Below, piece after piece: positions 53,126 through 64,000 of a stretch of DNA of 64,000 nucleotides. Position 1 is the first letter of the stretch. Every line of letters begins with the position of its first letter. A program made the translations under genes and the position numbers. This DNA is from Spirochaetia bacterium (GTDB lineage: Bacteria > Spirochaetota > Spirochaetia > CADAEX01), in contig OY759746.1 of assembly GCA_963662795.1 (NCBI GenBank), positions 1,792,001 through 1,856,000 of the forward strand. The letters run 5' to 3'. Under the pieces are notes generated by a model that saw nothing but the letters and a program-made list of their open reading frames with translations, was not told the DNA's origin and ran no database searches.

Positions 53126-54496
53126 ATGGAAGCGTTAAGTAAATTCGTTTCAATCATCGGTTCATTTGCCTGGGGGCCGATTATGATCGTCCTGTTGTTC
53201 ATGACTGGTCTTATCCTGTCTGTCGGGACTAAAATTGTCCAGTACCGAAAGCTGGGATATGCATTCAAACTGCTGTTTACCAAAGATGCCGATGCAGAAG
53301 GGGACATAAGCCCGTTTGCTGCACTGATGACAGCATTGGCCGCCACAATCGGAACAGGTAATATTGCCGGCGTTGCGACTGCAATTGCAGTAGGCGGACC
53401 AGGAGCTGTTTTCTGGATGTGGGTAACCGCAATACTCGGCGGAGCTACTAAATTCTCTGAAGCAGTACTGGCAGTCAAATACCGTGTAACTGATGAAAAG
53501 GGTGAAAAATCAGGCGGCCCGATGTATTACGCAAGCAAGGGTATGGAAGAAAAATTCGGCGGCAACTGGAAATGGCTTGGATTCCTTTTTGCGCTGTTTG
53601 CCTTCCTGGCTTCATTCGGTATCGGAAACATGGTACAGTCCAATTCGGTCGCAGCATCTCTTCAGCAGTCAATTGGACTGGCTCCATACATATCTGGTAT
53701 AGTTATCGCTATTGCAACCGGACTTGTAATTATCGGAGGAATCAAGAGCATAGGAAAAACAGCTGAAAAGATTGTTCCAATTATGGCTATTATTTATGTA
53801 CTTGGCTCACTCTGGGTAATTTTCGCAAACATTACATTCCTTCCGAGAGCATTCGGATGGATCTTCGGAAATGCATTTAACGCAAAAGCTGTAGGCGGCG
53901 GGTTCCTTGGAACTGTAGTCCGCATGGGTGTTGCAAGAGGTATTTTTTCTAATGAAGCCGGTCTTGGAAGCGCTCCTATCGCTCATGCCGCTTCAAAGAC
54001 AAGCGATCCGATCCGCCAGGGTATAATTGCCTCCCTCGGATCATTCCTTGATACAATAGTAGTCTGCAGCATGACAGCTCTTGTAATTTTAATCTCACCG
54101 ATAGTAAATATCGGAGCTGACGGTTTGATGGTAGTCAAGGACGGCCTTAACGGCGCGGCCCTTACCACAGCTGCCTACAGCGCAAGCCTTCCTGTAGTTG
54201 GACAGTACATCGTAAGTTTCGGTCTGATATTCTTTGCATACTCAACAATACTCGGCTGGTACTATTATGGTTACAAATCATTTGAATACCTTGTAGGCGT
54301 AAAAATCGCCTCATTCTACAAATGGGTATGGGTAGCGCTTGTTTATATCGGTGCGGTAATTCCACTCAGTTTTGTATGGGATTTTTCAGACGCATTCAAT
54401 GGACTGATGGCTATCCCCAACCTTGTCGCTCTTATCGGTTTGAGCTCGGTTGTATTCGGCATGCTGAAAGAATATGAAGTGAAAATGAAAAAATAG
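53126..54496 (+). CDS. Alanine/glycine:cation symporter (AGCS family)
   Basis: IGTGNIAGVA, GGPGAVFWMW, GGPMYY, RGIFSNEAGLGS, DTIVVC. Confidence 0.95.
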   Translation: MEALSKFVSIIGSFAWGPIMIVLLFMTGLILSVGTKIVQYRKLGYAFKLLFTKDADAEGDISPFAALMTALAATIGTGNIAGVATAIAVGGPGAVFWMWVTAILGGATKFSEAVLAVKYRVTDEKGEKSGGPMYYASKGMEEKFGGNWKWLGFLFALFAFLASFGIGNMVQSNSVAASLQQSIGLAPYISGIVIAIATGLVIIGGIKSIGKTAEKIVPIMAIIYVLGSLWVIFANITFLPRAFGWIFGNAFNAKAVGGGFLGTVVRMGVARGIFSNEAGLGSAPIAHAASKTSDPIRQGIIASLGSFLDTIVVCSMTALVILISPIVNIGADGLMVVKDGLNGAALTTAAYSASLPVVGQYIVSFGLIFFAYSTILGWYYYGYKSFEYLVGVKIASFYKWVWVALVYIGAVIPLSFVWDFSDAFNGLMAIPNLVALIGLSSVVFGMLKEYEVKMKK

Positions 54497-54520
54497 GGTT
54501 AAGACTTTAATCCTTAACAG

Positions 54521-54570
54521 AAGGAGACAGGCAGAATTCCTTAATACAGGAAAGATCCTGTCTCCTTTTT
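54521..54570 (+). terminator. Intrinsic terminator
   Basis: AAGGAGACAGG...CCTGTCTCCTTTTT. Confidence 0.65.
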
Positions 54571-54781
54571 ATTATCATTACTTTTAGGGCAGTAACGCAT
54601 GCTGCCGGGAAATAAAAATAAAAAATAATGCTAAAAATAAAAACCGGTGTATAATTACCTATTAATCATAATCGGCAGAGTATGTTTCGGCTGCCTGCGG
54701 ATATAGTATTTTTACTTAACCACATTGCCTGTTTAAACCTGAAATGAAGCAGTAATGCAGAAAGGGATGTAATATCCTGTT

Positions 54782-55801
54782 GTGGCAGGAATTATATCAG
54801 ACGGAAAAGATATAAAAGTACGCATTCCCTATTCAAGAGAAGCTGTATTAAAACTTCATCAAATTGGCGGAGGCAGATGGAATCCGGAAGAAAAAGTATG
54901 GATTTTCAGCTACAGCAGGGAAAAAGATGCTTTAATCAGGAAGAATATCGGCCCGATATCCTTTTTACCGGATATTGAAACAGAGATTGTAAAACTGAAA
55001 AAAGAACTTGCCTTGAGGGGATACAGCCCTAAAACAGAAAAAGCCTATATAAGTCATGTTGAAAAGCTGCTTAAATTCTGCCGCTCAGAATGGCTCACAC
55101 CAAACCATAAAACCACAGATAAATTTCTATTGGAATTATGTTCAGGCCTAAAGTTGTCCGGCAGTTTCATGAATCAGTTTACATCATCGATAAAATTTTA
55201 TTTCAATAATTGTCTCGGCCGTCCTGATGAAGCAATGCTTCTTCACCGGTATAAAATCGGAAAAAAACTTCCCCCTGTTTTAAGCAAAACTGAGGTTGCG
55301 CTGCTTCTTGATTCTGTAATAAACCTTAAACATAAAACTATTCTGTCGGTAATCTATTCTTCAGGTCTTAGAATAAGTGAAGTGATAAATCTGAAACCGG
55401 GAGATATTGATTTTGATACAATGAATATTCATGTCAGGCAGGGAAAAGGAAGAAAAGACCGCATAACAGTTCTTTCAAGAAAGGCCGCCCAACTGATTTC
55501 ATTGTACAGAGAAGAATATCTTCCTTCTGTCTGGCTGTTCCCCGGACAGATCCAGAGCAGGCACATAAGTGTAAGAAGCGTTGAGGCTGTTTTTGGACGG
55601 GCATTGCTCAAATCCGGAATTGAAAAAGCTGCAACCGTACATACCCTAAGGCATTCTTTTGCAACCCATTTGCTGGAAGGCGGAACAGATATCCGCTATA
55701 TTCAGCAACTCCTCGGGCATAAAAACCTTAGCACAACCCAGATATATACTCATGTATCAAGCTGGAAACTGAAAAATATAGTCAGCCCGCTTGATTGCTG
55801 A
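54782..55801 (+). CDS. Integron-like tyrosine recombinase (SAM-like N-domain; lacks IntI I2 insertion)
   Basis: LRGYSPKTEKAY (SAM_4-like), SGLRISE, GKGRKDR, HTLRHSFATHLLE, LLGH, TTQIYTH; complete catalytic set; sits directly upstream of the cassette array. Confidence 0.9.
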   Translation: MAGIISDGKDIKVRIPYSREAVLKLHQIGGGRWNPEEKVWIFSYSREKDALIRKNIGPISFLPDIETEIVKLKKELALRGYSPKTEKAYISHVEKLLKFCRSEWLTPNHKTTDKFLLELCSGLKLSGSFMNQFTSSIKFYFNNCLGRPDEAMLLHRYKIGKKLPPVLSKTEVALLLDSVINLKHKTILSVIYSSGLRISEVINLKPGDIDFDTMNIHVRQGKGRKDRITVLSRKAAQLISLYREEYLPSVWLFPGQIQSRHISVRSVEAVFGRALLKSGIEKAATVHTLRHSFATHLLEGGTDIRYIQQLLGHKNLSTTQIYTHVSSWKLKNIVSPLDC

Positions 55802-55878
55802 AGCTGAATTCTACGCATAACTGCAGATAAAATTAAATAAATAATTATATCTGCAGTTGTTCATCTATAGTCTTTGAA

Positions 55879-55906
55879 TTGATGTATTACGTATGTATGA
55901 TACAAT
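55879..55906 (+). promoter_or_regulatory. Candidate cassette promoter (Pc-like)
   Basis: TTGATG-16 bp-TACAAT with an extended TG, about 45 bp upstream of the first GTT crossover. Confidence 0.4.
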
Positions 55907-55931
55907 CTAGGCTAAGCTAAAGCAAAGAATC

Positions 55932-55957
55932 ACAACTGCAACTACTAGGAGTTATAC
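55932..55957 (+). other. attI-like primary recombination site
   Basis: GCAACT-ACTAGG-AGTTATAC. GTTATAC (55951) is the exact complement of GTATAAC (56868) that closes cassette 1. No attC hairpin precedes it. Confidence 0.7.
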
Positions 55958-56110
55958 GAAAAACCGCGCCAAGAGGCTACAATTTCGCCCCGGGGAAACG
56001 GGAAAAGCCAGGCGTCCTGCCTGGCTTAAGAAAGAAATAACAGAAAATGGTAATAATTTTTAAAAGTGTGAATTTTGTAGTTTTGGAATAGCTTCAGTTC
56101 TTGAATAGAT

Positions 56111-56139
56111 TTGACTTACACAGCAATATGTGTTAAAAT
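56111..56139 (+). promoter_or_regulatory. vapBC sigma70-type promoter with palindromic operator
   Basis: TTGACT-17 bp-TAAAAT; ACACA...TGTGT inverted repeat in the spacer. Confidence 0.65.
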
Positions 56140-56166
56140 GTACACAAAAGGATTGAGGAGAAAAAT

Positions 56167-56367
56167 ATGGCTACAAACCTTGCAATTGATGATAAATTAT
56201 TAATACTTGCCCAGGGTATTGCTGGAATAAAGACAAAGAAGGATACAGTAAACCTTGCGCTTAAAGAGTTTATTCAGAGAAGAAAACAGGAAGAAATTAT
56301 AGATATTTTTGGCAAAATAGAGTTTGCAGAAGATTATGACTATAAACAAATGAGAAATAGAAAATGA
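56167..56367 (+). CDS. vapB: VapB-family antitoxin (cassette 1)
   Basis: MATNLAIDDKLL...TKKDTVNLALKEFI pattern; overlaps the toxin start. Confidence 0.88.
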   Translation: MATNLAIDDKLLILAQGIAGIKTKKDTVNLALKEFIQRRKQEEIIDIFGKIEFAEDYDYKQMRNRK

Positions 56368-56789
56368 AAATACTTGTAGATACTTCTGTCTGGTCATTGG
56401 CATTAAGGAAGAAAACACTCACAAAGGAAGAGGATAAAATTGTAAGAGAATTAAAGGAATTAATTTATGAACTTAGGGTCATGATAATGGGGCCTATAAG
56501 GCAGGAATTATTATCCGGCTTATCAGATGATGAAAAGTTTAAGATATTAAAGGAAAAATTAAAATCATTTGAAGATATAGAATTGAATCAGGAAGATTAT
56601 GAGAAAGCAGCTGAGATATCGAATAGTTGTAGAAAGAAAGGAATCCAAGGATCACATATAGATTTTTTAATATCAGCAGCAGCATTGAATAGAAATATAA
56701 GTATTTTTACAACAGATAAAGATTTTGAAAATTATAAAAAAATATTAAGTTTGAAATTGCATAAAGTAAGAGAAGAAATAAACAAGTAA
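56364..56789 (+). CDS. vapC: VapC PIN-domain toxin (cassette 1)
   Basis: LVDTSVW, QELLSG, DFLI, FTTDKDF acidic PIN residues. Confidence 0.9.
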   Translation: MKILVDTSVWSLALRKKTLTKEEDKIVRELKELIYELRVMIMGPIRQELLSGLSDDEKFKILKEKLKSFEDIELNQEDYEKAAEISNSCRKKGIQGSHIDFLISAAALNRNISIFTTDKDFENYKKILSLKLHKVREEINK

Positions 56790-56867
56790 AAGGAAAAGAC
56801 CCGCTTTCGTACGTCCTGTACGAAAGCGAAGAGGGGCGAAATTAAGAAAAAGAAGGCGCGGTTCATC

Positions 56868-57050
56868 GTATAACAGCGGATGTTCGGTTTCGGCTGGCGG
56901 GGAGTAAATTATCAAGAAACCCAGCCTTCACCCAAATTGCCTGTCCTATAACCATTTTGATAATTTAAAATATTACGGAAGAGTTTAATCAATAGCTGTA
57001 TAATGCAATTGAATAATCAGGCAACTTCGATCATCCGCGGGACGTTATTT
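56868..57050 (+). other. attC-like site 1 (183 bp)
   Basis: GTATAAC-A-GCGGATG...CATCCGC-GGGAC-GTTATTT. Confidence 0.8.
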
Positions 57051-57305
57051 GCAATACCGCAGATTAGTGATTATGAATTATCTAATTTAGTTCGTGTTTG
57101 TTCAAACATTCCGTGCCCAAGAGGAGCCCGGCGTCCTGCCGGGCTTAAGAAGAATTATAAAATCTTAAACTTACAATAATAAATAGGGAAAATGCTTTTA
57201 GATATTTATTGTAAACTTTTCCAGCAATGTAATAATTATAAAATGAATAATAAAAAGATTGGATCTGGTGTTAAATATTAATAAGAATAAAGGGTAGGTA
57301 ATTTT

Positions 57306-57665
57306 ATGGATAAGTATTTTGAAAGTAAAATAAACAGTAGTATAACAGATCGAAAAAAACTTCATGAAAGATTTGTAAAAGGTTGTAAAACCTATAAAAG
57401 CTTTCTAGAGCTTGAGGAAAGAGCATTTTCTGATAGTGCTTTATCAAGAAAAGTAAAAGAATTAATGGCATTATCAATATCAATAGTAACCAAGTGTGAA
57501 CCTTGCATAGAATGGCATGTGCAACAAGCTTTACTTCAAGGAGCTACAGATGAAGAAATATATGAAACAATAGATGTTTCAATAGAAATGGGAGGAGGAC
57601 CAGCAGGAGCATATGCAAGGTATGCGCTTAATGCAATGGATTATCATAGAGCAAATAAAAGATAA
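57306..57665 (+). CDS. Carboxymuconolactone decarboxylase / AhpD-like protein (cassette 2)
   Basis: ALSRKVKELMALSISIVTKCEPCIEWH (CxxC), GAT.EEI.E, MGGGP. Confidence 0.9.
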   Translation: MDKYFESKINSSITDRKKLHERFVKGCKTYKSFLELEERAFSDSALSRKVKELMALSISIVTKCEPCIEWHVQQALLQGATDEEIYETIDVSIEMGGGPAGAYARYALNAMDYHRANKR

Positions 57666-57946
57666 AAAATGAAATATTGAGATAAACCATTAAAGAATTA
57701 AGCTCCACGATGAAGGAGAGACGATATATTTACAAAAAAAATAAAGCTGTAAGTAGAAAAGTAGTAAATATATGAATATAGGATGAAAATAAAAAGTAAA
57801 TTATTGACTTAAAATAGATAAGAGTGTTATTTGGTACTGCCATGTAAAAAGTATGGGGAGCGCCCCGTTTTCGCCGTCCTGGCTCAAACGGGAAGAAGGG
57901 CACGGGAGGAGGAAGGAAAAGAGGGAATAAATAATTGCGGTACTGC

Positions 57947-58138
57947 AAATAACAGCGATTATTTCGCTGCGCTCCCTGTGGTCGCTTGGGCTCCTGCCAG
58001 TTGAGCTGGCAGATCGCCATATTTTGTTTTCATAAAACCGGAACAACATGTGTTTTATGCTCTTCAAGTTTGTAAAAACTAAATAAAAATATTTTAGAGT
58101 TTAGCCACAAAACATCGAATAATCGCGAGACGTTATCC
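57947..58138 (+). other. attC-like site 2 (192 bp)
   Basis: AAATAAC-A-GCGATTATTTCG...CGAATAATCGC-GAGAC-GTTATCC. Confidence 0.82.
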
Positions 58139-58233
58139 ACAATGCCCCCACAAGATGCAATCGCCCGGACCTCCGGCCGACGGGCGAGGATATGTTGTAC
58201 TAGGTAAGATTTTATTCACTAAAAGGAGTAAAA

Positions 58234-59025
58234 ATGCTATTACCAAATATTGATGAATTAAGAAATCAAAATACGATTTGGCACTATACAAAAGTTGATT
58301 ATGCAATAAAATACATATTGTATGAACTGAAATTACGTCTTTCGCCCGTGGCAAAAAGTATTGATCCAATAGAAAATAGTGGACATGGTATTAATTATTC
58401 TAATTTCAACAAACAAGAAGAAATATCAGATTTTGCCCGTGAATTACGTAATAAATATATTAAACAGTCTCAAAATGTTAAGCAACTATCATTTTGCATG
58501 AATGAATATGCTGATAATAAAATGCATAAAATTGATAAATATGGTTTTATAAAACCTAGAATGTGGGATCAATATGGTGATCATTATAAAGGGGTTTGTT
58601 TTGGTTTTGATAAAAAAAAATTAAAAATCAATGAGGAAAAACAAGTTGCAGGAAAAGTTGTATATTACACATATGATGAATTTATTGGAATTGAGCATTT
58701 TTCAATAAATGCACAAATAACACCAGATATTAATATTTCAGAACCAGAATATATTCAGAATCTTAGTAAGAAATTTAATCAATTATTTTTTAAAAAGCAT
58801 ATTGATTATATTGGTGAAAATGAATACCGAATTATATCGTTTAGCGAAACTGATTTTGATTATATAGATATCGAAAAATCAATTAATTGTATTATAATTT
58901 CAGGTTTTGTAGAATCAAACTATGATTATAGGGTATTAAGAAAGTATGCAAAAAAATTAAACATACCACTTATTCAAATATTATGGATCGGAACAAGTAT
59001 TGATATACAAAGAATAGAAAAATAA
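58234..59025 (+). CDS. DUF2971-like protein (cassette 3)
   Basis: WHYT, DPIE, MWDQYGDHYKGVCFGFD, K...Y..ENEYRII. Confidence 0.75.
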   Translation: MLLPNIDELRNQNTIWHYTKVDYAIKYILYELKLRLSPVAKSIDPIENSGHGINYSNFNKQEEISDFARELRNKYIKQSQNVKQLSFCMNEYADNKMHKIDKYGFIKPRMWDQYGDHYKGVCFGFDKKKLKINEEKQVAGKVVYYTYDEFIGIEHFSINAQITPDINISEPEYIQNLSKKFNQLFFKKHIDYIGENEYRIISFSETDFDYIDIEKSINCIIISGFVESNYDYRVLRKYAKKLNIPLIQILWIGTSIDIQRIEK

Positions 59026-59135
59026 TATTAAAAACAAAGAAATCTAATTTATGCAAGGATAATAATTGCCTGACAGTAAATAAAGTCCAGCCTTGGCTCC
59101 GCCGTGCGGCTTGGACAAGAAGTGGGGGCACTGGT

Positions 59136-59306
59136 GGATAACAGAGGATAATTCGCTGCGCTCGGAGTACCTCGCTTGGCCTGCGGCATATTTTGCTAGC
59201 ATTAAAGCAGTTCATATTCTATTTTACCCTATTTAAATATATTTCCCAAGACTATTACGTTGAAAATGGTTTTAGCAAAACATCGCTTATCCGCGGGACG
59301 TTATCC
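59136..59306 (+). other. attC-like site 3 (171 bp)
   Basis: GGATAAC-A-GAGGATAA...TTATCCGC-GGGAC-GTTATCC. Confidence 0.8.
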
Positions 59307-59424
59307 ACAATGCCCCCACAAGATGCAATCGCCCGGACCTCCGGCCGACGGGCGAGGATATGCAGTAGGAGTAATATACAGTATAATAGTATATGTTAGA
59401 AGAACCATTCGGGCAGAGGAAGAA

Positions 59425-59982
59425 ATGAAAAGAGAACAATTTTTTATATTGATTTTGTCAATATTACTTATTTCCTGCACAAAGATGGAAAACGATGTAA
59501 TTCTATTAGTTCCATATAGTCAACAAGAAAAATTAATTAACTATTTTACTAAAGCCAGTATTAAAGTAAAAATTGATAATTCTTTGATGACAATTTCTTC
59601 TCCTACTGATAATGTATTATTAAACCTTCTTGATTTTCTATTTACCAATATATATTTGAATAAAAGTAATTTAAATAATTCAACTACCACAAGAACTCAA
59701 GATGGATCATATTATAAAAGAAAATATCTTGAAATACTTCCTAATTTAAAATACATAATAAGGGATGATTTGAGTAGTCCAAAGGCAGTATATGACCCAA
59801 CACATCCTGATGCAATTAAAGAAGGTAAAGACAAAGGATATGTATATTATCCAAATATAATTATAGATGATGAGGAAAATGATCTTATCAATAATGTATT
59901 TTTATATAATTCAATTCTTGAATACTTAAAAAGTAGAAACATACCAGTTATGTCTATAGAAATTGATCCAAATAATATATGA
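59425..59982 (+). CDS. Lipoprotein with FlgC-like (flagellar rod) domain (cassette 4)
   Basis: Start MKREQFF with lipobox LLISC; SNLNNSTTTRTQDGSYYKRK and VYDPTHPDAI..G...GYVYYPNI match FlgC motifs. The upstream extension in the ORF track reads through repeat DNA. Confidence 0.75.
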   Translation: MKREQFFILILSILLISCTKMENDVILLVPYSQQEKLINYFTKASIKVKIDNSLMTISSPTDNVLLNLLDFLFTNIYLNKSNLNNSTTTRTQDGSYYKRKYLEILPNLKYIIRDDLSSPKAVYDPTHPDAIKEGKDKGYVYYPNIIIDDEENDLINNVFLYNSILEYLKSRNIPVMSIEIDPNNI

Positions 59983-60041
59983 TGAGTATCATAAATATTT
60001 CTGAAATTGATAGAAATTAATGTTTTTTAAATACAAAAAGA

Positions 60042-60161
60042 CTTCTAACTACTTTTACCTGATGTTTTCTTTGTTACATTTTGTACTGTCGCTTCGCTTC
60101 TGACGCACAAAATGCGCCAAGCCCTTCGGGCACGAAAATACAGATTAAGCAAATGTAAAAT
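60042..60161 (+). other. Degenerate classical-type attC nested within cassette 4
   Basis: CTTCTAAC-tactt-TTACCTG...CAGATTAA-gcaaat-GTA. CTTCTAAC is the exact complement of GTTAGAAG at 59395, upstream of the gene. Confidence 0.6.
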
Positions 60162-60247
60162 TCCAATTACTTAAACAAGGAAATAAGGGAAGAAGTCCGG
60201 CCTTGGCTTCCAGCCGTGCGGCCCGGACAAGAAGTGGGGGCACTGGT

Positions 60248-60439
60248 GGATAACAGCGATTATTTCGCTGCGCTCCCTGTGGTCGCTTGGGCTCCTGCCA
60301 GTTGAGCTGGCAGATCGCCATATTTTGTTTTCATAAAACCGGAAGAACATGTGTTTTATGCTTTTCAGGTTTGAAAAAACCAAATAAAAGTATTTTAGAG
60401 TTTAGCCACAAAACATCGAATAATCGCGAGACGTTATCC
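60248..60439 (+). other. attC-like site 4 (192 bp), near-identical to site 2
   Basis: About 6 substitutions relative to 57950-58138 by manual comparison. Confidence 0.85.
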
Positions 60440-60531
60440 ACAATGCCCCCACAAGAAGACACCGCCCGGACCTCCGGCCGACGGGCGAAGAGAATTGAAT
60501 ACCAATTAAACTACTTAAAAAAGGTAAATAT

Positions 60532-61434
60532 ATGAATGGATTAAATGAAAAAAGTATTTTATTCAAACATTTAGAGGACAATTCTTTACATACGATAAAT
60601 GAATTATATCATTATACAACAATAGAAAATTTCTACAAAATTATTGAAACTAAAACATTTTATATTTTTAATTCTTATCAAATGAATGATTATAAAGAAA
60701 ACTATGTATTGATCGAAAAACTCAAGGAATATTTAAAAAATAGAAATGATATTCCAGAGGATTATCTGAATAAACTTGATGAAACCATAAAGATAAAGTT
60801 TAGATTGAATACACCATATGTGTTTTGTTTAACTGAATTAAATGATTCGTTATCACAATGGAGAGCTTATGGAAATGATGGAAAAGGAATTTGTTTTAAA
60901 ATAGACAGTAAAAAGTTACAAATGAAATATCGTCTGCCTTTTACAGGCGCAGAAAAAGATAATAATTTATCATTACACAATGTAATTTATAATAATGAAG
61001 AGATTAAAAATATCATTGAGAATATTATCAATCAAAGTATTGATTTTGCAAAAACTCGAGATGAAAATATTAGAAATATAGTCTTTGCTGAAACAGCATG
61101 TGCTTTAATGGTAAGATTTAACCCAGTAGTAAAATTAAATGAATTTAAAGAAGAGAAAGAATGGAGAATTATTTACAATCCGGTCTGTATAAAAACCGAC
61201 GGCATTCCATTTAATACTTTAGATAATAATAAAGATATTGGATTTTTAATAACAAATAATAATTTGAGATCTTATTTTAAAATATCATTTACAAGTGATG
61301 AATTTAAAGATATTATTTCTGCTATTTATATTGGTCCTAAAAGTAGAGTAGACGATTATGAAATGCGAATATTATTAGATATTAATGCATTAAAGAATAC
61401 AGAAATATATCGTTCAAATATTCCATATAGATAA
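60532..61434 (+). CDS. DUF2971-domain protein (cassette 5)
   Basis: LYHYT, MNDYKE, DSLSQWRAYGNDGKGIC, FKEEKEWRI, IYIGP, SNIPYR. Confidence 0.85.
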   Translation: MNGLNEKSILFKHLEDNSLHTINELYHYTTIENFYKIIETKTFYIFNSYQMNDYKENYVLIEKLKEYLKNRNDIPEDYLNKLDETIKIKFRLNTPYVFCLTELNDSLSQWRAYGNDGKGICFKIDSKKLQMKYRLPFTGAEKDNNLSLHNVIYNNEEIKNIIENIINQSIDFAKTRDENIRNIVFAETACALMVRFNPVVKLNEFKEEKEWRIIYNPVCIKTDGIPFNTLDNNKDIGFLITNNNLRSYFKISFTSDEFKDIISAIYIGPKSRVDDYEMRILLDINALKNTEIYRSNIPYR

Positions 61435-61526
61435 TTATTTGTATAGGTAGAATAATTAACTGACTGTTTATGAAGTCCGGCCTTGGCTTCCAGCCGTGCG
61501 GCCGGACAAGAAGTGGGGGCACTGGT

Positions 61527-61698
61527 GGATAACAGCGGTTCAAGCGCATCGCTCGGATTACCTCGCTTGGGCTTCGCCAAACATCGCAGGGTTTATGCTA
61601 CAACTTTTTGAAATAACGAGTTAGGAGTAATAAATAATACAGCTTTATGTTAAATAGTCTTGGTCTGCGATGCTTCGCTTAACCGCAGGACGTTATCC
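61527..61698 (+). other. attC-like site 5 (172 bp)
   Basis: GGATAAC-A-GCGGTT(C)AAGCG...CGCTTAACCGC-AGGAC-GTTATCC. Confidence 0.82.
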
Positions 61699-61836
61699 AC
61701 AATGCCCCCACAAGATGCGATCGCCCGGACCTCCGGCCGACGGGCGAAAATTAGTAAACGCAGTTTTATAATTGGAAATGGTAAGCACTTTTTCCCCAGT
61801 CATGGAAAGGAAAAGTACCCCACCTAGTGAAAAAAA

Positions 61837-62568
61837 TTAGCTCTCCTTTTTATTTGAAATTCTATATGAATCTCCCGCGAGGGAGAAAACATGTGCATGA
61901 TGCAGCAGTCTGTCCAGCAGCGCTGTTGTCATTACTTCGTCCCCAAGCATTTCCGCCCAGGAATCAAAACTTTTGTTAGATGTTATGATAATTGATGTGC
62001 GTTCATAAAGTTCACTCACCAGCGAAAAGAATAAATTGGCCTCTTTTCGGTCAATAGGTGTGTAGCCTATTTCATCGATGATCAAGACATCGGACTTCAT
62101 GATTCGATTGAGCCTGAATGTACTCGAGCGCTGAACATCCATTGTTTTCAGTAGCTTCACCAGTGATGTGATTCGCTCAAAGCAGACCTTATACCCTTTC
62201 TGAATTGCCTCATAACCAAGTGCAATAGAAAGATGAGTTTTCCCTATTCCCGGAGGTCCAAAGAAAAGAAGATTTTCCTGTTTATCTATCCAAGTGAAAT
62301 CGAGAAGATTTTTAAGCTGTAATTTGTTTATACCTTCCAGCCTATTTATATTAAAATCTTCAAGAAGTTTTATTACCGGAAAATGAGAGCCTGCAAGGTT
62401 GCGTCTCAGCCTGCGTTCCATCCGGTAGGAGATCTCTTTTTCCAGAAGAGTTTTAAGGAACTCAAGATGTGAAATTTCACTTTCAACATTCACTTCATTT
62501 AATGCTTTTGATATCCCCTGAAGTTTTAAGTTTTCCAGCACTCCGGTACAATAATCGAGCGTTTTCAT
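61837..62568 (-). CDS. istB: IS21 helper ATPase IstB
   Basis: GPPGIGKTHL, LIIDEIGY, IITSNK, LLDRLLHH, GDSYR. Confidence 0.95.
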   Translation of the reverse strand: MKTLDYCTGVLENLKLQGISKALNEVNVESEISHLEFLKTLLEKEISYRMERRLRRNLAGSHFPVIKLLEDFNINRLEGINKLQLKNLLDFTWIDKQENLLFFGPPGIGKTHLSIALGYEAIQKGYKVCFERITSLVKLLKTMDVQRSSTFRLNRIMKSDVLIIDEIGYTPIDRKEANLFFSLVSELYERTSIIITSNKSFDSWAEMLGDEVMTTALLDRLLHHAHVFSLAGDSYRISNKKES

Positions 62569-64000
62569 AAAGCTCCTCCGATTATGCTGACCAGCGAACT
62601 ATAATAACTAAGCTTCCTTTGAACAACTTTTGGATTTCTTAAATCTGCTTTAACAGCCTGAATTCCGGTTATTAGTTTAGGGAGAATATTATCATGTAAA
62701 TCTTCAGTAACACCTTTTACATATGCATACGCTTCTTCAAGATTCATGGCGCTGCATCCCCCTGTTTCTTCACACACGATAAGGGCCTTTGAAAGTAGCT
62801 CAACATCATAGCCGCCGGATAGAAATTTACTTAAACTTGAATGCTGTTCACGAAAATAACGGGTGTAACGCCGATAGTTTTTCTGAACAAATTCCTCCCA
62901 ACCGGGAGCTGTAACTTTTTCAAGTAACTCATCTCGAAGCTGTGTTTGTTTAACAGAATTATCTTTAAAATGATTCTTTTTCGATATTATCTGTCCAGGA
63001 AGTACTGAGCGTGCGTGATGAGCAATTTCTCTTCCAGCCAATTCATCATAAATGAATAATTCATTCTCTGATCTATAAATCCAGACGGTTTTACGCCGGT
63101 ATGAAATAGGCACTGAATATTTACAGGAATCTACACTTATGAAACTTTTTAGATCTACTTTACGATCTTCCCGCTCAAGAATGGAATCTCTTTTAAACAT
63201 TGAAGCCCGCAAGGGCTTGAGTTTCTCTTGTTCCTTTTTAAGCAGGTTTGCAGGAATTATTCCGGTTGCTTGAGATATTTTCCCGTTTGCTGTTCTCACT
63301 ATCCATGAAGAGAGCTTTGATTGAACATCTTCGAAATCATCAAAGGTTCTCGCTGAAAAAAAACTTGTCTTTACGAACTTAACGAGATTTTCTACCTTTC
63401 CCTTGGATTCCGGATCTGCTTTTCGACAGACATATAGCTCAAACTGCATTTCATCTTGAAATTGGCTAAATGATTTTGTGAGAATAATATCCCCGCTGTT
63501 TTCACTGACAATCAGGGTCCGGTCCTGATCAATTACTATCTGATGTGGTATGCCACCTATGTACTCAAAACAATCAAGAAGATGTAAAATTACATCCAAT
63601 GTTGTAAACGGACGTTGCTGTACTGCAACATATCGGTATCTGCTTGCAGAGAGCACTGATGCAAAGATATAGACGGTCTCTCCAGTGTTTATCTTTAGCT
63701 GGCCAAAATCAACCTGCAATTGTTTTCCAAACGGCAGTTCATCTACCGGAGTATAGGACCTATATAGCGGTGATGTAAGAATTCCACCTGTTCTTACCAG
63801 ATATGAAATATAATTTCTCAAAGTACGGGGTGTTCCCGGAAGATTCTCCTCCCCGTATTTTTCCTCCAGCAAATCATAGACTGAAGACGAATATACCTTG
63901 CTTTCATTCAGCCGGTAAATCTCAATGACTTCGTCTCTGAAGGGTTCGAAGACTTGTTCTTTTTTATGAGCGATTTTTTGATACTCAACATATTTTTCAG
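62565..64000 (-). CDS. istA: IS21 transposase IstA (5' end outside window)
   Basis: QLQVDFG, DQD, DPESKGKVEN, YSVP; the frame stays open from 63872 to the window edge; 4-bp overlap with istB. Confidence 0.93.
   Translation of the reverse strand, partial: EKYVEYQKIAHKKEQVFEPFRDEVIEIYRLNESKVYSSSVYDLLEEKYGEENLPGTPRTLRNYISYLVRTGGILTSPLYRSYTPVDELPFGKQLQVDFGQLKINTGETVYIFASVLSASRYRYVAVQQRPFTTLDVILHLLDCFEYIGGIPHQIVIDQDRTLIVSENSGDIILTKSFSQFQDEMQFELYVCRKADPESKGKVENLVKFVKTSFFSARTFDDFEDVQSKLSSWIVRTANGKISQATGIIPANLLKKEQEKLKPLRASMFKRDSILEREDRKVDLKSFISVDSCKYSVPISYRRKTVWIYRSENELFIYDELAGREIAHHARSVLPGQIISKKNHFKDNSVKQTQLRDELLEKVTAPGWEEFVQKNYRRYTRYFREQHSSLSKFLSGGYDVELLSKALIVCEETGGCSAMNLEEAYAYVKGVTEDLHDNILPKLITGIQAVKADLRNPKVVQRKLSYYSSLVSIIGGAL

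Follow-up and report, generated by a model that had tools for sequence, protein, structure and literature searches.

Complementary leaders and trailers of spirochaete gene cassettes are most simply the halves of an extended attC stem

The DNA examined here, referred to below as the window, is a 64,000-nucleotide (nt) stretch of a Spirochaetia bacterium genome (GCA_963662795.1, contig OY759746.1, positions 1,792,001 to 1,856,000), in which a tyrosine recombinase gene is followed by small co-oriented open reading frames (ORFs) with repeats of 170–190 nt between them. Each ORF is flanked by a complementary leader and trailer, which an initial annotation of this DNA had taken for a conserved scaffold that could fold around the gene. 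The analysis reported here indicates that the pairing is most simply that of a split recombination site, with leader and trailer forming the two halves of a long stem belonging to the cassette's own integron-type attC hairpin, rather than that of a wrapper folding around the gene.

The array begins 150 nt past the recombinase stop codon, in the same orientation as that gene, and runs from genome position 1,847,951 to 2,180,706, occupying 332,755 base pairs (bp), or 8.5%, of a 3.93-Mb single-contig genome; the window contains only its start, comprising the first five and a half cassettes. Profile searches of the genome located 192 R' and 190 R'' boxes in the array, every one of them on the + strand. 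The array holds 184 complete cassettes of 613–5,864 nt (median 1,321) and 184 R''-to-R' intervals of 70–190 nt, most of which measure 140–190 nt. Each repeat is laid out as ATAAC-A-(L'' box), a loop, and (L' box)-GGGAC-GTTAT, and the L boxes vary yet stay complementary (GGATAA/TTATCC, GGTTAA/TTAACC, GATTAT/ATAATC, and GAATG/CATTC). The recombinase gene and the leaders, trailers, and attC cores of the window are as follows.

54782..55801, + strand: tyrosine recombinase P0001, 339 amino acids (aa), directly upstream of the array (PF00589, E 2.5e-40)
55951..55970, + strand: cassette 1 leader, R' box and extension, the 3' half of the outer stem, GTTATACGAAAAACCGCGCC
55981-55991, + strand: cassette 1 leader, second-tier stem arm, AATTTCGCCCC
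56006-56026, + strand: cassette 1 leader, local hairpin with a GTCCT loop
56802-56828, + strand: cassette 1 trailer, hairpin with a GTCCT loop (whole trailer 56802..56874)
56833-56843, + strand: cassette 1 trailer, second-tier stem arm, GGGGCGAAATT, then an AAGA-rich linker
56855-56874, + strand: cassette 1 trailer, 5' half of the outer stem, ending in R'', GGCGCGGTTCATCGTATAAC
56870..57048, + strand: attC 1 core (R''-L''-loop-L'-R'), heterotypic (trailer of type 1, next leader of type 2)
57044..57145, + strand: cassette 2 leader, with outer stem half GTTATTTGCAATACCGCA at 57044-57061, arm CCGTGCCC at 57111-57118, and hairpin at 57125-57145
57864..57953, + strand: cassette 2 trailer, with hairpin at 57864-57892, arm GGGCACGG at 57898-57905, and outer stem half TGCGGTACTGCAAATAAC at 57936-57953
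57949..58136, + strand: attC 2 core, heterotypic (type 2 to type 3)
58132..58186, + strand: cassette 3 leader, with outer stem half at 58132-58151, CAAGA linker, and hairpin CGCCCGGACCTCCGGCCGACGGGCG at 58162-58186
59085..59142, + strand: cassette 3 trailer, with hairpin at 59085-59116, AAGAAG linker, and outer stem half at 59122-59142
59138..59304, + strand: attC 3 core, a homotypic junction at which the full outer stem can form in place
59300..59354, + strand: cassette 4 leader, with stem half at 59300-59319 and hairpin at 59330-59354
60195..60254, + strand: cassette 4 trailer, with hairpin at 60195-60228 and stem half at 60234-60254
60250..60437, + strand: attC 4 core, a homotypic junction
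60433..60487, + strand: cassette 5 leader, with stem half at 60433-60452 and hairpin at 60463-60487
61475..61533, + strand: cassette 5 trailer, with hairpin at 61475-61507 and stem half at 61513-61533
61529..61696, + strand: attC 5 core
61692..61746, + strand: cassette 6 leader, with stem half at 61692-61711 and hairpin at 61722-61746

At the two ends of cassette 1, GTTATACGAAAAACCGCGCC pairs with GGCGCGGTTCATCGTATAAC (inverted repeat I14, 20 nt, 90% complementary), and in cassette 2 GTTATTTGCAATACCGCA pairs with TGCGGTACTGCAAATAAC (inverted repeat I20, 18 nt, 94% complementary). The sequence GTTATCCACAATGCCCCCAC occurs at 58132, 59300, and 60433, and also at 61692, while copies of GTGGGGGCACTGGTGGATAAC end at 59142, 60254, and 61533. 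Cassettes 1 and 2 represent rarer types with an extra second-tier stem (55981/56833 and 57111/57898, respectively). The leader architecture of cassette 1 recurs in related types with other stem sequence, and a sister type of cassette 2 exhibits a two-sided compensatory change in its second-tier stem (CCATGCCC/GGGCATGG). The paired arms lie outside the attC hairpin, such that the trailer arm ends in R'' (ATAAC) and the leader arm starts with the R' box (GTTAT) of the previous attC. The arms abut the attC core and form an outward extension of the R''/R' stem.

Pairing within a cassette (in cis) was scored between leader nucleotides 6–21 and the 17 nt preceding R'', leaving out the invariant GTTAT/ATAAC. 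A score of at least 8 was obtained with the cassette's own trailer in 172 of 184 cassettes. When leaders were instead scored across the attC against the trailer just upstream, 49 of 172 junctions reached this value, a number accounted for by the 44 junctions between neighbors of the same type. Cases were counted as informative when more than 2 nt separated the upstream neighbor's trailer from the cognate one; of these 128 cases, 122 favor the cassette's own trailer and 6 the neighbor's. Random leader-trailer pairs reach a score of 8 in 9.4% of trials, and pairs taken from the genome background reach even a score of 4 in 0.46%. The leader-trailer complementarity is real, cassette-specific, and far above chance, and the preference for the cognate trailer in 122 of 128 cases indicates that it belongs to the cassette as a mobile unit. 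Moreover, sequence type switches exactly at GTT, with all sequence 3' of the G going with the downstream gene. On this evidence, leader and trailer are most simply halves of a single long stem within the attC that belongs to the cassette.

Counted from the G of GTT, the helix spans 20 bp, in which positions 1–10 pair, position 11 is mismatched, and positions 12–20 pair again, followed by the unpaired positions 21 and 22. The array contains 39 leader types and 67 distinct leader/trailer combinations, among which positions 1–3 are invariant and positions 4–5 covary in cis. Positions 6–9 and 12–20 are Watson-Crick in 88–97% of the 67 combinations, with three to four pair types each, and position 10 is A-T in 52 combinations and A.A in 13. 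At position 11, a leader A is opposite a trailer C in 65 of the 67 combinations, and the leader nucleotide is A in all 184 cassettes (184/184); the sense strand carries an A.C mismatch here, and the opposite strand a G.T wobble. Thus, the split-stem anatomy, its linkage to the cassette, and its covariation are well supported.

Beyond the helix lie AAGA-rich linkers. The leader stem is followed by NAAGA in 171 of 184 cassettes (CAAGA in 148), and the trailer stem is preceded by AAGA in 162 of 184 (AAGAAG in 130). Further outward are local hairpins and, in some types, an additional stem. The leader hairpin core CC(C/T)GG(A/G)CC(T/C)C(T/C)GG, whose loop includes CCTCC, is present in 159 of 184 cassettes; this is a motif count, as the main-type hairpins have short inner stems. 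Hairpins of the minor types are simple, with G-TCC-T loops on nine (leader) and eight (trailer) different stems. A strict search for a perfect 5-bp stem around a TCC loop, which captures minor types only, recovered 15 of 184 leaders and 11 of 184 trailers versus 32 of 2,000 random windows. RNAalifold returned no useful consensus from mixed hairpin sets, as the families are too different. Every string quoted in the initial annotation was located at its position, and several of its statements hold up when extended to the whole array: complementarity reaches far past the 7-bp R box, as both the 20-bp helix and the 172 of 184 high scores outside GTTAT/ATAAC demonstrate; pairing is kept while the sequence differs between types, as seen in the 39 leader types, the 67 combinations, and the three to four Watson-Crick pair types per position; and the stem-CAAGA and AAGAAG-stem junctions do recur (148 and 130 of 184 cassettes).

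In at least five other Spirochaetia genomes, an array of this kind is immediately preceded by a P0001 homolog. The leader/trailer architecture and cis pairing are likewise found downstream of P0001 homologs in other Spirochaetia (L095, L096, L097, L099, and L100, the last on the same contig as L002), and the leader hairpin is almost invariant in these arrays. Among 38 intervals from related genomes, a score of at least 8 was reached in cis in 16 and across attC in 3, with the cis partner better in 26 and the across-attC partner better in 7; the regular-expression delimitation of this set missed sites and many intervals span more than one cassette, and we therefore regard it as supportive only. 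Arrays in Bacteroidota (L068, L058) exhibit a shorter form, consisting of 10 bp, a leader A opposite a trailer C at position 11, and then 3–4 bp. Arrays located beside a canonical integron integrase (IntI) provide a comparison. In one spirochaete array of this kind (G089), nine of ten cassettes pair perfectly in cis over exactly 9 bp, followed by an unpaired leader A, and in another (G034) the perfect cis runs are 4–8 bp (seven intervals). Two further arrays beside canonical IntI (G066 and G113; loci L112 and L114, reverse strand) mix extended-type cassettes with a second attC type (R'' GCATTTAAC), which has the same leader and trailer hairpins around the ORF without the long cis stem. The hairpins therefore travel with genes and not with one attC type. 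As far as the two control arrays (G034 and G089) reach, the 20-bp helix appears to be an elaboration of a shorter shared plan and not a general property of integrons.

The reading we favor, and consider probable, is that the attC hairpin of each cassette is extended outward at its base, with leader and trailer supplying one strand each, and that the long stem makes the attC of a free cassette a better substrate. In this attC family the R''/R' stem extends over 20 bp and ends at the unpaired AAGA-rich linkers, with the hairpins beyond. If strand exchange takes place at G|TT, a point within this stem, insertion by the recombinase would leave the 3' stem half at the start of the cassette and the 5' half, together with the attC core, at its end. 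The halves would become contiguous again, completing the helix, only in the excised circle or between same-type neighbors. Rather than supporting the initial proposal of a fold around the ORF, the continuity of the arms with the R''/R' stem and the change of type at GTT are most simply explained by halves of one attC stem.

Folding predictions made with DNA parameters for 179 units and 137 heterotypic genomic junctions bear on the benefit that such a stem might confer. The mean minimum free energy of attC joined to its own leader is −38.2 kcal/mol for the top strand and −42.2 kcal/mol for the bottom strand, whereas the heterotypic junctions average −27.2 and −29.2 kcal/mol, respectively. On this basis, the hairpin of a free cassette would be predicted to be far more stable than that of a resident site. 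In 169 of 179 units the greater stability is predicted for the bottom (antisense) strand, as it is for most single modules, namely the stem, the core, and both hairpins. For the homotypic junction at attC 3, the predicted folds of both strands resolve into four distinct modules, namely trailer hairpin, outer stem, attC core, and leader hairpin (z-scores of −3.3 for the top strand and −2.6 for the bottom strand). The attC of a free cassette, probably its bottom strand, may thus be a more stable and better-marked substrate than sites resident in the array, which would favor capture over loss. This functional benefit is an inference. A role in cassette formation, which the initial annotation had raised, is speculative.

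Several observations weigh against this interpretation. Five of 184 cassettes have clearly non-cognate ends, and the neighbor's trailer is favored in the six informative cases noted above. At 128 of the 172 scored junctions the trailers differ, and these sites form only about 5 bp of the R box in place, yet they must recombine if their cassettes are ever excised. The strand differences are small, amounting to 0.3–2 kcal/mol per module, and the attC 3 unit of the window is predicted to be more stable on the top strand (−49.5 versus −46.5 kcal/mol for the bottom strand). Finally, the long stem is absent both from canonical attC sites and from the second type of attC found in related arrays, indicating that the stem is not needed for integron recombination in general.

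An alternative that retains the cassette-specific pairing is that it acts within the array, with the leader of a cassette pairing with its own trailer across the approximately 1.3-kb gene in single-stranded DNA (ssDNA), drawing the flanking attC sites together and promoting precise excision. The complementarity in cis is as real and cassette-specific as this requires, and a 20-bp helix of about −20 kcal/mol could close a large ssDNA loop. However, pairing R' of one site with R'' of the next leaves the partner R boxes of both attC sites unpaired, cassette lengths vary from 613 to 5,864 nt, and a circular cassette would account for these arms with no need of a long-range fold. The strand that would be exposed is also unfavorable. 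From GC skew, the replication origin lies near 1.38 Mb and the terminus near 3.42 Mb; if, as is usual, the G-rich strand is taken as the leading one, the leading-strand template contains the attC bottom strands. Lagging-strand synthesis would then expose the top strand, on which position 11 forms the A.C mismatch. We consider in-array folding improbable. In favor of the extended-attC reading, the same replication orientation is given for 25 of 30 sedentary chromosomal integrons in the portion of Loot et al. (2017, PMC5371416) available to us.

Less probable still is a role at the RNA level, in which the leader-trailer duplex, or the flanking hairpins alone, would process, stabilize, or translationally tune the cassette mRNA in read-through transcripts. 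The leader-trailer stems of rRNA operons offer a loose parallel. The hairpins bracket the ORFs and are kept with a different attC type in related genomes, which hints that they serve the gene and not the site, and CCTCC is located in the loop of the leader hairpin. On the other hand, position 11 forms an A.C mismatch in the sense orientation and a G.T wobble in the antisense one, and the stem, core, and hairpins are mostly predicted to be more stable as the antisense strand (169 of 179 units). In addition, no trailer hairpin scored as a sense-strand intrinsic terminator, and searches of Rfam produced no match at E ≤ 1 in window positions 54000–64000 and none at gathering score in five related loci. 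The RNA scaffold suggested by the initial annotation is thus disfavored for the stem by its strand asymmetry, although for the hairpins an RNA role is possible.

We assign slightly lower probability again to a non-functional footprint, in which the generation or copying of cassettes or attC sites from a palindromic template left a long inverted repeat that is not under selection. The types do act like lineages, with 39 leader types of which the commonest is found in about 40 cassettes, and adjacent cassettes carry the same 16-nt leader type at 44 of 172 junctions versus the 8.9% expected from type frequencies, which suggests local duplication or copying, or else type-biased insertion. Nevertheless, pairing is kept through many sequences with two-sided changes, the linkers are conserved, and the non-Watson-Crick position is nearly invariant (65 of 67 combinations) and is seen in Bacteroidota arrays too. 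The terminal inverted repeats of small transposons resembling miniature inverted-repeat transposable elements (MITEs) or insertion sequences (ISs), each carrying one gene, would also present 20-bp inverted repeats around units of about 1 kb, but we reject this candidate, as the repeats start exactly at the GTT/AAC boxes and are continuous with the attC cores, all 184 units are co-oriented in one array adjoining a tyrosine recombinase, the cargo is varied and not transposase, and the actual IS in the window, of the IS21 family, is unrelated.

Several characteristics of attC sites can be recognized in this array. Inverted R''/R' boxes with AAC and GTT are present throughout (190 R'', 192 R', 184 intervals); a second paired L''/L' box, a partly unpaired spacer, and a variable terminal loop are evident from L-box covariation and from the folds; and crossover at G|TT, with the start of the cassette complementing its own R'', is indicated by the 122 of 128 informative cases and by cis covariation at positions 4–5. 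Canonical attC sites also have two extrahelical bases (T/G), at a set spacing, that IntI recognizes; in the folds here, 4–5 nt adjoining the R box are unpaired on one strand, and the outer stem contains a bulge. The present sites resemble canonical attC sites (59-base elements; Vibrio VCRs) in having an imperfect hairpin with AAC/GTT boxes, an L box, an unpaired spacer, and a variable loop, in the position of the crossover within the R box and the complementarity of the first bases of the cassette to its own R'', and in their co-oriented ORFs and the placement of their bottom strands on the leading-strand template. They differ in that the stem runs 13 bp past the 7-bp R box, with a fixed A.C at nucleotide 11, AAGA linkers, and flanking hairpins; in that the spacer is strongly asymmetric (about 1 nt versus 5 nt); and in that the R''-to-R' span is mostly 140–190 nt. 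The split extended stem would accordingly be classed, on sequence grounds, as a variant form of known integron attC sites. How rare the extension may be is judged here from two spirochaete control arrays (G034 and G089) and the literature, with Vibrio and Xanthomonas arrays lying outside the comparison.

A tyrosine recombinase with its catalytic motifs adjoins this co-oriented cassette array, and the HxLRH motif and the catalytic-Tyr region are invariant in 11 homologs. A complete integron carries an IntI with an additional domain (the I2 helix) beside attI and the array, and in this sense the locus is not a complete integron. The domain is missing from P0001, because residues 235–258 align to residues 173–238 of VchIntIA (2a3v chain), such that 24 residues stand in place of 66, and because the match to TIGR02249 comprises two stretches, at profile positions 3–172 and 230–313, that miss positions 173–229 and give a score of 200 bits, below the cut-off of 265. 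The best fold match among solved structures is nonetheless the integron integrase 2a3v (E 6.8e-17). In a tree of 35 proteins, which is unrooted and has unresolved inner nodes, the canonical IntI clade falls within an unresolved group of proteins without the insert, and this combined group is split from the XerC/D-like pair of the same genome with branch support of 100/99. P0001 resembles XerA, XerC, and XerD in aligning end to end with archaeal XerA (4a8e) and in approaching the cut-off of NF040815 (214.5 bits versus 220); it differs from them in heading a cassette array rather than acting at a dif site, in grouping with canonical IntI, and in its best fold match. By fold and tree, P0001 appears closest to the integron integrases and could be an intermediate form or one that has lost the insert secondarily. 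Its conserved adjacency to such arrays suggests that it services them. The protein also has a conserved N-terminal domain of about 60 aa with a beta-beta-alpha-beta-beta-alpha arrangement (AF2 model, mean pLDDT 84.8).

Homologs of P0001 at E ≤ 1e-40 are present in 47 of 201 sampled Spirochaetia genomes and canonical IntI above the cut-off in 65 of 201, with some genomes carrying both types. The only canonical intI of the present genome (G000:C1:412,090-413,300; L081 4090-5300) is 1.43 Mb away and retains the IntI-specific region, but is broken by a frameshift and in-frame stops, and no attC of the array's family was found near it. Two additional paralogs of P0001, with 37% and 43% identity to it, are located inside the array on the opposite strand (G000:C1:2,050,779-2,051,573 (-) and 1,881,758-1,882,309 (-), respectively). 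The homologous recombinases of Bacteroidota (L005, L010, L013, L017, L019, L068, and L058) have a long N-terminal extension and a total length of about 575–583 aa; downstream of them lie arrays of attC-like sites, each about 126 nt. Such arrays may go unrecognized, given that the report on IntegronFinder 2.0 (PMC9024848), in the part available, lists few complete integrons in Bacteroidetes.

The recombinase permits a bolder proposal, which we regard as tentative and on balance unlikely, that the 20-bp stem and its fixed position-11 mismatch form a landmark by which a clade of I2-less, integron-type recombinases tells a folded attC from duplex DNA, giving a ratchet toward capture. The TCC-loop hairpins, which flank every ORF regardless of attC type, might then be arm-like sites for the extra N-terminal domain or a footprint of a cassette-making step. 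Were this so, the clade would never have had, or would have lost, the I2 helix, and the complete landmark would be available only on free cassettes, the stem being split on insertion; the resulting capture ratchet could explain how the array came to represent 8.5% of the chromosome. In the accessible text of Escudero et al. (2016, PMC4792948), the I2 helix is treated as a key step towards single-strand recombination, with its origin posed as a chicken-and-egg problem. The present locus, with an intact recombinase that appears closest to integron integrases, may offer a natural system for studying how folded sites are recognized without this helix.

The integron attC is a textbook example of a recombination site read by shape and not by sequence, and its accepted shape ends at the 7-bp R box. 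The array analyzed here adds a large natural data set (184 cassettes, 39 stem types, and several genomes) for an attC family with a helix that is 13 bp longer and has one non-Watson-Crick position. With the crossover located within the helix, every cassette preserves a trace of its own site, from which the crossover can be mapped and cassette shuffling read directly in the sequence. Free and resident cassettes differ structurally as a consequence of this arrangement, which could bias capture against loss. The canonical model, as set out in the excerpted portion of PMC7439510, is limited to the R box, extrahelical bases, an unpaired spacer, and a terminal structure. In the literature surveyed (including PMC8352920, PMC8618304, PMC4889954, and PMC3053210), which was represented mostly by abstracts, with supplementary attC alignments lying outside it, there was no mention of an attC stem extended at its base, nor of a cassette array with an I2-less recombinase at its head. 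A partial text on Treponema and other Spirochaetia chromosomal integrons (PMC3607928) describes integrases that are sometimes co-oriented with cassettes. Spirochaetia integrons with canonical IntI come from the same bacterial class as the present array, share integrase-cassette co-orientation at G034, and include extended-type cassettes in G066 and G113; they differ in their cis runs (4–8 bp in G034 and 9 bp in G089), whereas here the recombinase is without the IntI insert. Another possible relative is the DUF1874 motif, a multistem structure in consecutive intergenic regions (Weinberg et al., 2017, PMC5737381), which was suspected of being an unusual attC whose structure goes beyond a simple hairpin. 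According to the section of that paper available, its authors saw no recombinase gene, whereas here one heads the array. If this motif is in the Rfam library, it produced no match in window positions 54000–64000 (E ≤ 1) or in the five related loci (gathering thresholds). With 184 complete cassettes, the present array is on the scale of the largest in the sedentary-integron data set, for which the consulted part of Loot et al. (2017, PMC5371416) gives up to 203 cassettes.

The remaining features of the array start are the presumed attI region, the cargo genes, and an IS.

55802..55950, + strand: presumed attI region, separating the recombinase stop codon from the first GTTAT
56167..56789, + strand: cassette 1 cargo, vapB-vapC toxin-antitoxin pair (PF09957, E 8.6e-18; NF047959, 101 bits, cut-off 80)
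57306-57665, + strand: cassette 2 cargo, AhpD-domain protein
58234-59025, + strand: cassette 3 cargo, DUF2971 protein
60532-61434, + strand: cassette 5 cargo, DUF2971 protein
61837-63998, minus strand: IS21-family element breaking the body of cassette 6 (IstB NF038214, 264 bits; IstA NF033546, 139 bits, below the cut-off of 160)

The attI function of the first of these regions would follow from its position. Within it, AACTGCA(G/A) occurs three times, in both direct and inverted orientation (inverted repeats I19 and I21; 55819-55858 and 55932-55955), and two of the copies form a 17-nt near-perfect palindrome; these repeats are possible recombinase-binding sites. The cargo in the window, comprising the VapB/VapC pair, the AhpD-domain protein, two DUF2971 proteins, and one ORF without a family match above the curated cut-off, is typical of cassettes. 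Promoter-like sites showed no enrichment (37 observed versus 31.4 expected). Upstream of vapBC there is a strong sigma-70-like promoter match (56111-56139, TTGACT-17-TAAAAT, with an extended TG), which would fit a self-expressed toxin-antitoxin cassette. Isolated trailer/attC/leader modules also occur beyond the array (G000:C1 near 450.5–451.6 kb (+), 2,344.5–2,344.8 kb (-), and 2,489.6–2,489.8 kb (-)), and these are possibly cassettes at secondary sites.

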